Below, in pieces: positions 40,508-46,799 of a stretch of 64,000 nucleotides of DNA. Made by a program: the position numbers and the translations under genes. Each line of letters starts with the position of its first letter. Within the stretch, counting starts at the first letter, position 1. The notes beneath the pieces were generated by a model. It was not told the DNA's origin and did no database searches. It saw only the letters and a list, made by a program, of their open reading frames with translations. The stretch comes from a bacterium (GTDB lineage Bacteria; Zhuqueibacterota; Zhuqueibacteria; Residuimicrobiales; Krinioviventaceae). The stretch is from NCBI GenBank assembly GCA_963693055.1, contig OY843751.1, positions 4,224,001 to 4,288,000 of the forward strand, written 5' to 3'.

Positions 40508-42556
40508 TTAATATTTGACCCGTTTTCCTCTACCTGCGCGGGGATTCAGTGCACCGCTGTTCAAATCCTGTATCCGGTCACGTAAATCCGCGGCTTTTTC
40601 AAATTCCATATGTGATGCCGCTTCATACATCTGATGTTCTAACTGAAGCAGGTATTCGTTCTTTTCTTCAAAAGAGAGTTTTTTCCAGTTCTCTTTGAAT
40701 TGTTTTTCTTCATCCGCAGATTGCTTTTTACCATAGGGTGCCGGTTTAGCATCTGCAACCCGTGTTGCGCCCATTACCGCTTCAATGGATTTCATAATGG
40801 TTGTGGGCGTTATATTATGTTCTTCATTGTATTTCTGTTGAATGGCACGACGACGATTGGTCTCGTCTATGGCAACCTGCATGGAATCCGTTACCTTGTC
40901 CGCGTAAAATATAACAATACCCTCTGAATTTCGCGCAGCTCTTCCTGCAGTCTGTATCAACGATCGTGCCGAACGTAAATATCCTTCCTTGTCCGCGTCC
41001 AGTATTGCCACCAGCGAAACTTCTGGCAAATCCAATCCCTCTCGCAGCAGGTTAATACCCACCAATACGTCAAACTCGCCCAAACGCAGATCACGTAAAA
41101 TAGCCATTCGGTCCAGAGCGTCTATCTCAGAGTGCATATACCGCACCCGAATGCCAATACCCGCCAGGTAATCGGTCAGGTCTTCTGACATGCGCTTGGT
41201 CAGTGTGGTTACCAATACACGCTCGTTCTTGTCCGCGCGAATATTAATCTCGTGCACCAGATCGTCGATCTGTCCTTTAACAGGACGTATTACAATCTGC
41301 GGATCCATAAGCCCGGTGGGACGAATGATCTGTTCAGACACCACACCGTTGCACTTTTCCATCTCGTAATCCGCAGGTGTTGCGGATACAAATACGACTT
41401 TATCTATTACTTTTTCAAATTCATCAAAATTTAACGGACGGTTGTCCAGTGCCGACGGCAGACGAAAACCGTGCTCTACCAGCGTTTCTTTACGGGACCT
41501 GTCACCAAAATACATCCCCCTGAACTGCGGAACCGACACGTGCGACTCGTCAATGATCATTAAAAAATCATCCGGGAAATAATCGATCAACGTATACGGA
41601 CGCTCACCGGCTTTTCGTCCGGACAAGTGCCGCGAATAGTTTTCGATACCCGAGCAAAAGCCGATTTCCTGCATCATCTCGATATCGTAACGGGTTTTCG
41701 ACTCCAGTCGCTGCGCCTCTACCAGCTTGTTCTCTTTGCGGAACTTTAGCAATTGCTGGTCCAGTTCTTCTTCTATATCTGTAATGGCTTTTTGAAGTTG
41801 CGTATAGGGGGTTACAAAATGCTTGGCGGGAAAAATGGCCACATTGGGACGACGACTTATAATCTCGCCGGTGATCGTGTCCACAATCGAAATTTCCTCA
41901 ATCTCATCACCAAACATCTCGATACGAATTGCCTCTTTTTCATACGCAGGGATTAGTTCAATCACATCACCACGCACCCGGAACGTACCGCGCTCGAACG
42001 CAATATCGTTACGGCTGTACTGGATCTCTACCAGCTTGCGCAGGATCTCATCCCGATCGATCCGCTGCCCCACATTCAGGAACAGCAGCATCTGCTTCCA
42101 GGTCTCCGGTGTACCCAATCCGTAAATACAAGACACTGAAGCCACAATGATTACATCACTACGGGTCATCAAAGAACTGGTGGCCTTTAACCGCAATCGA
42201 TCAATCTCGTCATTGATAGACGTGTCTTTTTCGATATAGGTATCTGTAGACGGCAAATACGCTTCCGGCTGATAATAATCGTAATAACTGATAAAATATT
42301 CTACCGCATTGTCGGGGAAAAAGCTTTTAAACTCTCCGTACAACTGGGCCGCCAGGGTCTTGTTATGCGAGATCACCAACGTGGGACGGTTATAGCGGGC
42401 AATCACATTCGCCATGGTATAGGTTTTACCGCTTCCGGTAACACCCAGCAGCGTTTGAAATTTCTCACCCTGCTCCAGTCCCCGTGTCAGCTCATCTACT
42501 GCCTGCGGCTGATCACCCTGTAATTTATAATCTGATACTAGTTTGAATTTATCCAT
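40508..42556 (-). CDS. uvrB: excinuclease ABC subunit B
   Basis: [43 protein letters not shown]-term UVR domain. Confidence 0.98.
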
Positions 42557-42610: not shown

Positions 42611-42639
42611 AATATACTATCAATATGACAAATTGTCAA
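42611..42639 (-). promoter_or_regulatory. sigma70-type promoter of uvrB; -35 box overlaps the palindrome TGACAAATTGTCA
   Basis: Minus strand TTGACA-17 nt-TATATT; palindrome at 42626-42638. Confidence 0.7.
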
Positions 42640-42784
42640 GCTGTAAGTGACCTTGATTTAACCTTGATTAAAAGGATTAGACCATGATTACCATGATAAG
42701 AAGGATTAAAGTCGGTCGCTGCCCTTCGATACTCTGCCTACGGCAGATACTCAAGGTCCGTGCCCGCCGAAGGCCCGATTCCAT

Positions 42785-42810
42785 GTACGGGCGGACCTGT
42801 GTGTCCGCCC
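42785..42810. repeat. REP-like palindrome, copy 1 of 3
   Basis: GTAC-GGGCGGAC-CTGTGT-GTCCGCCC; related copies at 44899 and 46663. Confidence 0.8.
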
Positions 42811-42836
42811 ATTTCTTTACTCCGTCCGAAACTCCT

Positions 42837-43135
42837 CAGACTGTGTGAAAATGAATTAAATTTCAAACAAATAAAATTATATTTATGAGCAAAATTTAAA
42901 AAAGACGTGGAGTGCATTACCTTTATGTAATGCGGGCCGTCGGAGACGGCCTCCATTCAACTATATTTGCATAATAATATTAAACTTACATCACAATAAT
43001 AAATCTATAATATTTGAAAAGCAGGCGGGTTTAAATCGGACCTTCGGTCCGACGCATAACGCCGGTAGGCGGTCACACGCATAAAGGCGATGCAGTCCAA
43101 AAACATAACAATTTTTCTTGTTTTTACACAACCTG
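42837..43135. mobile_element. 299-bp non-autonomous IS1182-type element (MITE)
   Basis: Left end CAGACTGTGTGAAAATGA is identical to the IS left end at 45030; right end matches the IS right end 15/18; flanked by duplicated TCCT inside the perfect hairpin TCCGTCCGAAAC/GTTTCGGACGGA; no transposase ORF. Confidence 0.85.
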
Positions 43136-43248
43136 TCCTGTTTCGGACGGAAATGACTCACAAAACTCTGTTTTGTTTTTCACCAGATCACCGGGTGCAT
43201 TTGCGCCCGGTGGAACATCACTCAGTACTTGAGACCTGGGAAAATCAC

Positions 43249-43365: not shown

Positions 43366-43498
43366 AAAATTACATATTTCTATTGCTTTATATTACATTT
43401 TTCCATTTATTCATAATGATGGGGGTAGTACAGGATGGGTGTAAGTTTTTCAATAAATAAATTCATTACTAATTGAAAAAAAATAAAAATTAAATTGT

Positions 43499-44245
43499 AT
43501 GAATACAACATTTTTAAATCATTGTAAAGAAGCATATTACTTTGAATTAGAGCGAAAAGATAGAATAAATTCCAATGTCAATATTCATATAACAATAATC
43601 ACTATCGTTATTGGTGCAATTGCTTTCTTTTTAAATAATTTACCTGATCCCCAAATAAATATCATCTTAATTATGATTTTTTATTTATCCTTATTATTGT
43701 CATCAGTTTTTACATTAATAGTATTTTATATCATTTTTAAAACAATTACTGGATACAAGTATGAATTTATTGCATCAACAGAAACATTTGAAAATTACAT
43801 AAATGATGTAAATGCTTATAATAAACAAGTATCAAAAAATGAAAAAATTGACATAAACACCAAATTCGAAAATTTACTATTCAAACAATTTTGCAAATGT
43901 GCAACACGTAATCAAATTAATAATGATAAAAAATCAGGTTATTTGAATTCTTTATCACGAAAACTTAGTATAACAGTAATACTGATTTTTTTTACATCAA
44001 TACCATTTTTTATATTAAATTTTACTCCTGAAAATAAAATTCAAAATATAAGAATAATTAACTTCGAGGATTCTGAAATGTTAGATAAAAAAGATGAAAC
44101 ACCAATAAATAAAAATACTAATGATTCAGATAAAACAAACAATCAAAAACCTGAACCGCCCAAAGAACCAACAACAAGGACTGTATTAGAATCTGAGCAT
44201 GGGCAAGACAAAGATAGTAACAACCTTTCGAGTACTGAAAAATAA
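43499..44245 (+). CDS. very AT-rich 3-TM hypothetical protein (PycTM-like topology)
   Basis: 248 aa; two adjacent TMs, soluble loop ending N..N.KK..YL, third TM, low-complexity C-tail; 9/60 GC at 43681-43740. Confidence 0.7.
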   Translation: MNTTFLNHCKEAYYFELERKDRINSNVNIHITIITIVIGAIAFFLNNLPDPQINIILIMIFYLSLLLSSVFTLIVFYIIFKTITGYKYEFIASTETFENYINDVNAYNKQVSKNEKIDINTKFENLLFKQFCKCATRNQINNDKKSGYLNSLSRKLSITVILIFFTSIPFFILNFTPENKIQNIRIINFEDSEMLDKKDETPINKNTNDSDKTNNQKPEPPKEPTTRTVLESEHGQDKDSNNLSSTEK

Positions 44246-44373
44246 TTCCCCCTAATTTCAAAATTCATCTTATTAGGAACGAATTATTTGCATAATTTGC
44301 TCCTCGTCAAATCATTGCTGGCTTGTAGTCCGCATAACATAATAAAACATATCCAACCAATAAAGGAACCCCA

Positions 44374-44862
44374 ATGCCCAATATAACCGAATACAAAAAA
44401 CAGATGCAAAAAGGCGACGTGCCCAAAGCGTATCGCACGATCATGCAATACATCATGGACCTGCGCACGCATTTTCAGAAAGCACACCCCGACTTTACCG
44501 TCTCCGGCAGCATCTATTTCGGATACATGGACATGTCTTACTTTGCAGTCATAACGGATTTGTTGAAAAGCCACAAGCTGAAAATCGCCATTGTGTTCAT
44601 CCACGAGACCGTCAGCTTTGAGGTGTGGCTCGCCGCCGCAAACAAACAGGTACAGAAAAAATACTGGCAATACGCCAAACAACACGAGTGGGACAAATAC
44701 CGCATCCCCCAGTCCATCCAGGGCGAGGACTCTATCCTCGAGCACACCCTTACCTCCACCCCGGATTTCGACAAACCCGATTCCCTCACCCACCAAATCG
44801 AAACAGACACTCTGGCATTTATCAAAGATATCGAAGCGTATCTGGCAGATATTTCAAATTGA
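44374..44862 (+). CDS. hypothetical protein (DUF7000-like, recalled from motif)
   Basis: AAGGA RBS; KAYR.IM.YIM.LR..F...GSIYFGYMDMSYF...LKIAIVF.H...FEVWL; C-rich codons. Confidence 0.7.
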   Translation: MPNITEYKKQMQKGDVPKAYRTIMQYIMDLRTHFQKAHPDFTVSGSIYFGYMDMSYFAVITDLLKSHKLKIAIVFIHETVSFEVWLAAANKQVQKKYWQYAKQHEWDKYRIPQSIQGEDSILEHTLTSTPDFDKPDSLTHQIETDTLAFIKDIEAYLADISN

Positions 44863-44898
44863 TCAAATTTTATCATTATTTTTATTTCTACTCATACC

Positions 44899-44924
44899 GC
44901 ACAGGCGGACCTGCGTGTCCGCCC
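44899..44924. repeat. REP-like palindrome, copy 2
   Basis: GCACAGGCGGACCTGCGTGTCCGCCC. Confidence 0.75.
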
Positions 44925-44971
44925 CAATTATATTTCACTGTGTATCCATCCAATTATCTGTCCCTACAAAG

Positions 44972-45009
44972 CCCCCTCCCTAATCCTACTCATCCTAATT
45001 CAGACAAAA
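44972..45009. repeat. direct repeat of 43311-43365 (ATCCT family)
   Basis: ATCCTAC[C/T]CATCCTAATTCAGACAAAA is 26/27 identical at 43339 and 44983; both copies are preceded by CCCCCTCCCT. Confidence 0.75.
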
Positions 45010-45029: not shown

Positions 45030-46629
45030 CAGACTGTGTGAAAATGATCTTGAATATATGATATTAAAGTTGGATATTCAAGTTGAAAGGAGAATCCAAC
45101 TATGCGATATGTTCAAGGTCATAATCGAGAGCAGGAGACGATGTTTCCATCGGTAATGGATGACTATGTAACCGAAGATAATCCGGTAAGGTTTCTTGAC
45201 GCTTATGTTGATACTCTTGACTTACTTAAACTCGGATTTACCCATGCAGATCCCCAGGCAGTAGGCAGAAAACCTTACAATCCGGCAGATCTTTTAAAAT
45301 TATACATTTATGGTTATCTCAATCGTGTTCGGTCCAGTCGTATGCTTGAAAAAGAGACAATCAAAAATTTAGAAGTAATATGGTTGCTTCGTGGATTACG
45401 ACCAGACTTTAAAACTATTGCAGATTTTCGAAAGGACAATAAAGGAGCACTTAAAAAAGTACATCGGGAATTTGTCCTTTATTGTCGTGAACTCAATTTG
45501 TTTGCCCTGGAATTGATTGCCATAGACGGCAGTAAATTCGCTGCAGTCAATCACACCAGAAAAGTTTTTAGTAAAACGAAAATAAAAAAAATGATCAATG
45601 AAATAGATCAAAGTATAAATGATTATCTTGAAAATATTGAACAAAATGATAAACATGAAAAGAGTGCCTCCCATCCGTCGGAAAATAAAGTAAAAAAAAA
45701 GATTGAACACCTAAAGACACAAAAAAGCACCCTGCAAGGCTATGAAGCTGAATTAGAGGCAACAGGCGAAACACAGATTGCCCTGACTGATCCTGACTGC
45801 CGTATCATGCGCACGGGACATAAGGGGCAGGATGCGTGTTACAATATTCAAAGTGCAGTTGACGGTAAATACAAGTTGGTCGTTGACTTTGATATTACAA
45901 ACGAAGGGAATGACCTGCATCAACTTGATAATATGACAAACAGGGTGAAAGAGTTATTTCAAATTGAAGGATTCAACGCTGTTGCTGATTTAGGATACTA
46001 TGAGAGAGATGAAATAAAAAAATGCCATGATAATAAAATCGAATGTTTTCTACCGGAAGGTAATAAATCACAGAACAGCGCAAAAGGGCTGTATACCAAT
46101 AAAAGTTTTCAATATAATGCTAAAGACGATTGCTATATTTGCCCCGCAAAACAACAATTGAATTGGACATACTTCAGAAATCATAACGGCAAAAAAGAAA
46201 AGGTATATTGGACTGCGGCTTGTCGAAAATGTAAACTCAAATCAAAATGCACTACAGCCAAAGATGTGCGTCATATTTATCGATGGGAACATGAAGGAAT
46301 CATAGATGAAATGCGCCAACGGGTCAAAGAAAATCCAGAAATCATTGCCGCTAGGCGGAATATAGTGGAACATCCATACGGGACCATAAAATATGCAATG
46401 GGACATTACTATTTTCTTTGTAAAGGGCTTGAAATGGTTAAAACGGAAATGAGTTTATCATTTCTGGCTTACAACATGAAAAGAGTAATGAATATTATTG
46501 GTGTGAAACAATTAATAAGCATTATTAAAATGTATAAAATGAAAACTCGTGATTTTAAATGTTATTTTCCATTTTGTCCCATTAAAGTCTATAAAATAGC
46601 TGTTCTATAGTTTGTTTTCACACAGTCTG
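45030..46629 (+). mobile_element. IS1182-family insertion sequence, 1600 bp
   Basis: Perfect 15-bp TIRs CAGACTGTGTGAAAA (45030-45044) and TTTTCACACAGTCTG (46615-46629); AGA duplicated on both sides; transposase inside. Confidence 0.93.
45102..46610 (+). CDS. IS1182 family DDE transposase
   Basis: GRKPYNP..LLKLYIYGY..SSR.LE, PDFKTIADFR, IAIDGSK, TDPD, ADLGY, CPA..C..C..C, RR.IVEHPYG, LAYNMKR; GGAG RBS. Confidence 0.95.
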   Translation: MRYVQGHNREQETMFPSVMDDYVTEDNPVRFLDAYVDTLDLLKLGFTHADPQAVGRKPYNPADLLKLYIYGYLNRVRSSRMLEKETIKNLEVIWLLRGLRPDFKTIADFRKDNKGALKKVHREFVLYCRELNLFALELIAIDGSKFAAVNHTRKVFSKTKIKKMINEIDQSINDYLENIEQNDKHEKSASHPSENKVKKKIEHLKTQKSTLQGYEAELEATGETQIALTDPDCRIMRTGHKGQDACYNIQSAVDGKYKLVVDFDITNEGNDLHQLDNMTNRVKELFQIEGFNAVADLGYYERDEIKKCHDNKIECFLPEGNKSQNSAKGLYTNKSFQYNAKDDCYICPAKQQLNWTYFRNHNGKKEKVYWTAACRKCKLKSKCTTAKDVRHIYRWEHEGIIDEMRQRVKENPEIIAARRNIVEHPYGTIKYAMGHYYFLCKGLEMVKTEMSLSFLAYNMKRVMNIIGVKQLISIIKMYKMKTRDFKCYFPFCPIKVYKIAVL

Positions 46630-46662
46630 AGAGCCCGGGAACGAGAAACAGGATATTTCCAT

Positions 46663-46688
46663 GTACGGGCGAATCTGTGTGTCCGCCC
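46663..46688. repeat. REP-like palindrome, copy 3
   Basis: GTACGGGCGAATCTGTGTGTCCGCCC; shares the upstream TTCCAT with copy 1. Confidence 0.75.
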
Positions 46689-46799
46689 TCCCTCATTTCA
46701 CCAATCCTTAAATCCTGTACATCCGGGTTCATCCCCAAGAAAATCACTTGATTCCTACCCGCAAAATGCTAATTTATAACCGTGCTGTGAACGGTTTCA

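Follow-up and report, generated by a model that had tools for sequence, protein, structure and literature searches.

A gene-less IS1182-type element enclosing an inverted REP pair in the duplicated loop of a dispersed palindrome

Background

MITEs, hairpin targeting by IS1182 elements and REP dimers enclosed in shells are each already known, separately from one another. Some IS1182 members reportedly duplicate the loop of their target, and elements of other families also make use of palindromic targets, IS1397 of the IS3 family among them. Within the IS1182 family, IS1272 and TnSha1 are described (PMC5678879, PMC4923244) with several traits that recur at the locus reported here, namely terminal inverted repeats, structure-directed targeting of hairpins and repeated insertion into one target in both orientations. 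The Nezha, Correia and RUP MITEs (PMC3184786) are likewise short and non-coding, share their ends with insertion sequences, duplicate their target and are represented by filled and empty orthologous sites. In REPINs and BIMEs, and in the REPtrons of RAYT (TnpA-REP) genes, REP sequences form inverted pairs with a tetranucleotide at the 5' foot of the hairpin, and the same REPs flank RAYT genes (PMC6006769, PMC8266576), as is also the case here. The mechanism of REP spread is described in PMC8266576 as still to be elucidated, and the passages on CGTC repeats in PMC3733652 report no enzyme beside them and guess at a broad range of transposases.

In this study, we analysed a window, by which we mean the whole stretch of 64,000 nucleotides taken from contig OY843751.1 (positions 4,224,001 to 4,288,000). 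At a probability of roughly 0.8, we read one of its short elements as a gene-less IS1182-type MITE that encloses a RAYT-type REP pair and lies in the duplicated loop of a dispersed palindrome, the REP pair being a likely passenger and the whole being moved in trans. The genome of the window (6.5 Mb, one contig) is called G000; G001 belongs to the same genus, and G005 and G014 to another genus.

Structure of the element and its setting

The element is non-coding, with no open reading frame of at least 80 aa, and its 299 bp (42837-43135) are bounded by IS1182-type ends. Its parts, those of its target and the nearby intact IS are as follows (window positions).

42837..43135, plus strand: IS1182-type MITE carrying an inverted REP doublet, 299 bp
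42837..42854, plus strand: left terminal inverted repeat, equal to the IS left end over 18 bp
43118..43135, minus strand: right terminal inverted repeat, 15/18 against the IS right end
42909..42933, plus strand: left REP with GGAG tetranucleotide, 7-bp stem and CTTTAT loop; begins at element position 73
42935..42951, plus strand: second 7-bp hairpin, directly 3' of the left REP
42952..43035, no strand: AT-rich spacer, constant in length, divergent in sequence between subfamilies and genera
43036..43052, minus strand: second 7-bp hairpin of the right REP
43054..43098, minus strand: right REP facing the left REP; tetranucleotide GGAC in the window copy
42833..42836, plus strand: target loop TCCT, left copy of the duplication
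43136..43139, plus strand: target loop TCCT, right copy of the duplication
42811..42832, plus strand: 5' part of the 69-bp palindromic target unit, left arm 42821-42832; missing from G001 together with the MITE
43140..43182, plus strand: 3' part of the target unit, right arm 43140-43151, second hairpin 43160-43176
45030..46629, plus strand: intact IS1182, ORF 45102-46610 starting at element position 73

An earlier note on this DNA had proposed an IS1182-ended element in the loop of a perfect hairpin with the loop duplicated, and this description was borne out. The left 18 bp are identical (18/18) to the IS end at 45030, 2193 bp away, and the right end agrees with the IS right end (46629) at 15 of 18 positions. 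The arms 42821-42832 and 43140-43151 are fully complementary, TCCT stands on both sides of the element, and the empty site rebuilt in silico folds into a 12-bp stem with a TCCT loop. Since the right-end variant is common to six copies of one subfamily, it is not a product of local decay; at the same time, CAA had been over-read as the mark of the right end, as it is confined to a subfamily, the variant being found in 6 of 29 aligned copies and other letters in most of the others. Exact 15-mer IS ends occur three times in the window, and end matches with at most 3 mismatches occur nine times against 1.95 expected, a number reached by none of 100 shuffles. Contigs of run X1 cross both MITE junctions, which excludes misassembly.

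The intact IS1182 itself lies in a 3-nt hairpin loop, with AGA duplicated. Its transposase (45102-46610) has the domains DUF772 and DDE_Tnp_1_6 and passes the NCBIfam IS1182 model NF033551 with 387 bits at a cut-off of 270.

The MITE is located between uvrB (minus strand, start 42556) and an ORF at 43499, approximately 200 bp upstream of the likely uvrB promoter. A promoter-like site with 11 of 12 consensus bases lies at 42611-42639 (minus strand), 55 bp upstream of uvrB (40508-42556), and is untouched by the MITE further upstream. Within the MITE, the search for promoters yielded one 9/12 site only and no excess, and no Rfam family was found, the best match (16.5 bits against a gathering score of 80) falling outside the element. 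A further short palindromic repeat with a terminator-like score was observed at 42779-42810 and at about 46660-46690, beside the target unit of the MITE and beside the target of the IS. In addition, a segment of 1.6 kb (about 43366-44981), with a direct repeat of 28 bp or more at its borders, is missing from G001; its two ORFs are 43499-44245 (weak DUF2207_C) and 44374-44862 (DUF7000).

Copies of the element and of IS1182

Further copies were looked for and are present. G000 contains ten full-length short copies of 274-299 bp with 70-95% identity to the window copy, nine found by end pairing and one, with a 2-bp loss in its left end, added by hand; three more short copies are truncated or degenerate. 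No two MITE copies are identical, the nearest pair in G000 sharing 95%, so that these sequences would not support ongoing activity of the MITE. The same architecture and spacing were found in G001, G005 and G014, and a form of 92-119 bp, which comprises barely more than the ends and the doublet, in G002, L102, L122 and L148. When 185,579 species genomes were scanned for an end followed by a REP within 30 bases, 26 loci were returned, 25 of the MITE kind and one by chance. From the candidates, L080, L132 and L149 were dropped as chance matches, and L134 and L135 were dropped as their second end is missing.

The IS itself is present in G000 in three copies of 1600 bp, of which two are identical and one is 91% alike. 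The earlier note had given the neighbouring transposase a special role, which is not supported: there are three full IS copies in the genome, the other short copies are not adjacent to them, and in G001 this MITE subfamily occurs alongside another IS1182, whose protein is 79% identical.

Several individual loci deserve mention. The third IS copy, L250 (G000 C1:1976057-1977656), has near-identical terminal regions despite its overall identity of 91%, which suggests a mosaic, and 2 of 4 bases are mismatched between the two copies of its loop. A different transposase, present ten times in G000 (e.g., C1:557992-558321), matches NF033551 weakly, below the cut-off. At L025 (G000 C1:5718200-5720900), an IS4-family element (269 bits, NF033592) is nested in the inter-REP spacer of a truncated MITE; the G001 orthologue of this copy (L034) is without the insert. 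In the viral collections, no relative of the transposase was found, and there was one match to the target palindrome.

Insertion into hairpin loops

Target statistics were compiled for 43 elements (4 ISs and 39 short elements) from six genomes, after 6 of 49 rows had been removed as false end pairings. In 35 of the 43, at least 8 of 10 flanking positions are paired around a loop of 3 or 4 nt, compared to 2.0% of 20000 random control positions. Duplication of the loop is exact in 25 of 43 and has at most one mismatch in 38 of 43; among the 18 imperfect duplications, five differ by more than one base. Some of the relatives' loci were found by a query that included a target arm, a possible source of inflation in these counts; for the G000 set, which was found by ends alone, flanks are paired in 11 of 12 and duplication is exact in 8 of 12. 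Duplications measure 3 bp where the loop has 3 nt and, in most cases, 4 bp where it has 4 nt; one G000 copy duplicates three bases of a 4-nt loop. The intact elements have targets of the same form: 8-9 of 10 flanking positions are paired at all three IS copies of G000 and at the IS of G001, and more such cases were found in other genomes.

As a rule, the target belongs to a dispersed palindrome family, which has 33 strict matches in G000 compared to 0-1 when the sequence is shuffled (two shuffles); a few of the matches lie inside ORFs and are likely due to chance. The hairpin at the window locus belongs to this family and is not a unique site. Near-identical MITE copies occupy different variants of the target in both orientations, each with its own loop duplicated. 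Distant elements with the same ends (L191, L193, L197, L209) lie in duplicated loops of quite different hairpins, so that the insertion site appears to be recognised by its shape and not by its sequence. No enzyme gene for the outer palindrome was found among the 30 RAYT loci, the nearby ORF starts and the one viral match that were checked.

Empty sites were examined in G001 through 13 stretches fetched by synteny and five earlier loci. An intact empty hairpin is present at the orthologous place for four of the ten G000 copies (c1, c4, c5 and c8), three sites are occupied and three are uninterpretable or lack the unit. Among the occupied sites, copy c7 is common to both genomes, and the sites of c3 and c6 hold other forms (a reversed half element, and another subfamily with another loop); c2 and c9 are unreadable in G001, and the window copy is without a clean empty site there. 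A perfect empty site in G001 was found for the window IS. Reciprocally, G000 has empty hairpins for the G001 IS and for MITE L002, and a degenerate one for L033b. Together with the multi-copy family and the targeting shared with the intact IS, these empty orthologous hairpins uphold the earlier reading of a non-autonomous IS1182-type MITE in a loop.

The window locus itself requires separate consideration. G001 is without the whole of 42811-43182, so that both the MITE and its 69-bp palindrome unit are missing; the junction is clean and shows no duplication, and contigs of runs X4 and X5 (one sample) skip the same interval similarly. The earlier note had named two observations as speaking against its own proposal: a relative lacking both the element and the hairpin, which is what G001 presents at this locus, and a lack of other copies, which fails because such copies exist. 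One explanation of the missing interval is that the 372-bp block of palindrome unit and MITE arrived as one piece through spread of the outer palindrome, or was deleted whole in the relative; half-elements followed by the whole target unit in relatives (L084, L030, L190) are compatible with this. However, no second copy has the outer unit of the window copy, near-identical copies lie in different target variants and in both orientations with their own loop duplicated each time, and empty units of the same type exist elsewhere in G000 (the strict matches given above). We therefore regard arrival or loss as a single block as rather improbable. Instead, the palindrome unit was likely inserted first and the MITE then entered its loop.

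Two observations on orthologous and half-element loci may be added. At L033:1219-1507 and G000 C1:5441692-5441970, an orthologous target holds different MITE subfamilies with different loops, which suggests independent insertions or conversion. At L084:1760-2050, L030:1170-1450, L189 and L190, half-elements are directly followed by the whole target palindrome, and the left arm of the target is doubled at L084 and L030.

The interior as a REP doublet

The interior of the MITE had been described as not recognisably transposase sequence, and a BLAST comparison with the IS agrees: beyond the ends there is no match, and the IS body was rejected as its source. The interior is not unrecognisable as such, being an inverted pair of RAYT-associated REPs. 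Every full copy contains two inward-facing units, each combining GGAG with a 7-bp stem, a loop of TTTAT type and another 7-bp hairpin. GGAG is invariant in the left REP (29/29) and present in the right REP of 28 of 29 copies, the exception being the window copy, whose right REP is damaged by GGAC and by a 20-bp hairpin insert (43058-43077) in the stem. The tetranucleotide thus departs from GT[AG]G, the canonical form in the definition of PMC6006769, which also notes atypical motifs for some REP classes.

The right unit was also found without IS ends, just behind a frameshifted RAYT gene (G000 C1:6210839-6211386), where the REP and its hairpin differ at 1 base in 43 from the right REP of three copies. 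A search with the C-terminal piece of this RAYT in 125 genomes gave matches in 55, and 30 loci (that of G000 and 29 others) were examined. Among these, GGAG REPs are present on both sides of 12 of the 13 closest homologues (37-44% identity), the thirteenth ending at a contig edge, whereas none of 16 distant homologues is flanked by the GGAG REP pattern, some of them having other GGAG-led hairpins. All three intact homologues tested pass NF047646. Judged by its form and its RAYT association, the MITE interior is the REP doublet of this RAYT clade.

The hairpins are conserved in structure. Across 29 aligned copies, 96% of cells are paired and 11 of 28 pairs have two-sided changes, counts that relatedness inflates; none of 500 shuffles is as high, and slid controls give 27-44%. 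Between genera, identity is 0.75 and 0.92 for the REPs, 0.72-0.76 for the extra hairpins and 0.76 for the ends, compared to 0.30-0.44 for the spacers. In G000, 24 of 33 GGAG REP matches are inside IS1182-ended shells (19 full-length and 5 damaged). All ten full-length G000 copies retain both REPs although the cognate RAYT is frameshifted there, and with the G000 RAYT as query no cognate gene was found in G001. Segments have been swapped at REP junctions in copies c3, c4 and L033, which is compatible with RAYT action or with ordinary recombination.

As the interior is the REP doublet of a RAYT clade, the element could also be viewed as a REPIN moved by the RAYT (HUH) enzyme, with incidental IS-like ends. 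This is very unlikely, as every full copy is bounded exactly by the IS ends, the duplications are like those of the intact IS, the cognate RAYT is broken or not found as stated above, and the same ends move unrelated interiors. To our knowledge, moreover, HUH enzymes make no target duplications.

Further REP variants were noted in passing. A GC-rich 20-bp hairpin occupies one stem position of the right REP in the window copy (43058-43077), L011, L027, L030 and L024, and a variant of this insert with a 21-bp gap is found in L033, L029 and L032, a similar one being present in the REP upstream of the broken RAYT. At L024 (G000 C1:1610958-1611079), a GGAG REP doublet stands free of IS ends, its two units separated by a very short spacer. 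Two more RAYT-like genes, one apparently intact and one frameshifted, are located at L023 and L022 (G000 C1:373.2-373.7 kb and 6442.2-6442.8 kb), each flanked by its own GTAG palindromes unrelated to the MITE REPs.

Other doublets within the same ends

In the phylum, 71 of 167 genomes contain the 13-base core of the end, with as many as 125 occurrences, compared to at most 2 for the reversed control. From a convenience sample (20 places by hand and 30 automatically, plus earlier loci), complete short elements were obtained from 16 genomes, and in 14 of these an inverted doublet lies inside, as judged by eye from sequence and fold. The doublets are of GGAG type in G000, G001, G002, G005 and G014, with a related type in G025, of TGTCATT type in G002, G012, G049, G061 and G065, and of CTTCGAC..GCTCAG type in G007, G013, G098 and G115; short elements in G055 and G160 are without a doublet. 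Thus, at least three unrelated repeat families are represented among the doublets within these ends.

Repeats of the TGTC and CTTCGAC..GCTCAG types are spread over the whole genome, including places without the ends. Counts of TGTC repeats and of ends in three genomes are 122 versus 21, 110 versus 8 and 72 versus 16; as the repeats far outnumber the ends, hitchhiking there would be one route but not the main one. We provisionally place the TGTC type in the CGTC superfamily by the description in PMC3733652, where the terminal motif is often TGTC, rather than by its consensus.

A model for movement and origin

The MITE would likely be moved in trans by any IS1182 transposase with matching ends, with the REP pair as a passenger. 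Very probably, the target is extruded as a cruciform and a DDE transposase joins the paired ends at the edges of its two loops, after which gap repair duplicates the loop. Joining at a cruciform with loop duplication corresponds to pathway c of the model in PMC5678879, as given in the legend of its Fig. 13.

With regard to origin, we lean towards a course in which the REP doublet, by means of the REP machinery, replaced the transposase gene or entered a short shell, several times and with unrelated REP families. The left REP starts at position 72-74 and the ORF starts at position 73 in 6 of 8 related ISs, which is a hint only. When the outer segments of the MITE were compared with 8 left and 7 right IS ends, no resemblance was seen outside the terminal repeats (z <2.4 in all but one comparison), and with leaders so dissimilar in sequence the replacement step is unproven. 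No ancestor with IS ends around a RAYT was encountered: tblastn gave no RAYT or transposase match in 32 metagenome loci, and the 26 genome loci of the species-genome scan were inspected for ends and REPs only. Among autonomous relatives, none of 14 IS loci has a GGAG REP.

Another question is whether the doublet does anything for the element. The strong conservation of the hairpins could equally mean function, and a different reading keeps the same element and the same mover and makes the REP pair a working part: its hairpins, or host proteins bound to them, would unite the ends, or new hairpins would make insertions at gene ends tolerable. In its favour, the inner hairpins are conserved as much as or more than the terminal repeats, and across two genera they show compensatory changes at a constant spacing; in 14 of the 16 sampled genomes, doublets from unrelated families occupy these shells; and both REPs are kept in all ten full-length G000 copies despite the broken RAYT there and the lack of a match in G001. 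However, changes private to a single copy are already 2.7-fold rarer in hairpins (32 of 2061 sites) than in spacers (161 of 3853), and the search for selection at transposition found no difference between the private and the between-subfamily ratio (Fisher p 0.24). The damaged right REP of the window copy, the doublet-free short elements in two genomes and the want of an Rfam family or promoter excess inside also speak against a working part, which we consider doubtful. Two points, the equal depletion of private and of fixed changes in hairpins and the existence of elements without a doublet, make us lean slightly towards the doublet being mainly a passenger, preserved by the slower rate of change of GC-rich hairpins and by recombination among copies.

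A broader proposal, which we put forward only tentatively, is that the IS1182 end type is a general second vehicle for REP doublets, one that targets palindromic repeats and has been repeatedly rebuilt around unrelated families, the doublet being a working part for transposability. If this were true, REP families could survive and spread after loss of their RAYT, and the proposal would cover the TGTC/CGTC repeats, for which no dedicated enzyme is known.

Taken together, these sequence comparisons make it likely that REP doublets hitchhike on IS1182 transposition. What appears to be new is a nest of three layers (outer palindrome, IS1182 shell and REP doublet) and, with it, evidence for REP-doublet spread by DDE transposition; a search of titles and abstracts, with most subscription papers, ISfinder and supplements outside its scope, found none on IS1182 MITEs with REP interiors. 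Here REP doublets are carried by the end of a DDE transposon, each move being recorded in duplications and empty sites, and in a genome with a broken RAYT the IS1182-ended shells hold most copies of one REP family. The system thus offers a simple assay for RAYT-independent REP spread. In addition, its many natural targets, in which the length of the duplication follows that of the loop, provide a direct handle on structure-directed IS1182 integration.

Comparison with known systems

Compared to IS1272 and TnSha1, the element described here is non-autonomous and its targets form a dispersed repeat family; furthermore, IS1272 is described as deleting the stem-loop without duplication (PMC5678879, PMC4923244), whereas the loop is duplicated here. 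It differs from the Nezha, Correia and RUP MITEs as portrayed in PMC3184786 in that a doublet belonging to a different class of mobile DNA can be recognised in its core. Unlike the REPINs of PMC6006769 and PMC8266576, it has GGAG in place of GT[AG]G and an extra hairpin for each REP, and the pair is enclosed by the ends of a DDE transposon and spreads with target duplications.

The most similar arrangements are GTAG-15 of Anabaena variabilis and CGTC-1 of Halothiobacillus neapolitanus, for which PMC3733652 describes a REP dimer regularly situated within a longer inverted repeat, with no empty shells there. Its account of these shells, which calls the issue out of scope, makes no mention of a transposase, a duplication or an empty site, whereas the shell described here has an intact IS1182 as its counterpart and is found around several REP families. 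Finally, IS1397, IS621, ISPpu9/10 and ISPa11 insert specifically into dispersed extragenic palindromes (PMC1525189, PMC3184786), as the present elements do; however, the REP-targeting IS621 belongs to IS110, while here an IS1182 group targets the palindromes and its MITEs also contain REPs.
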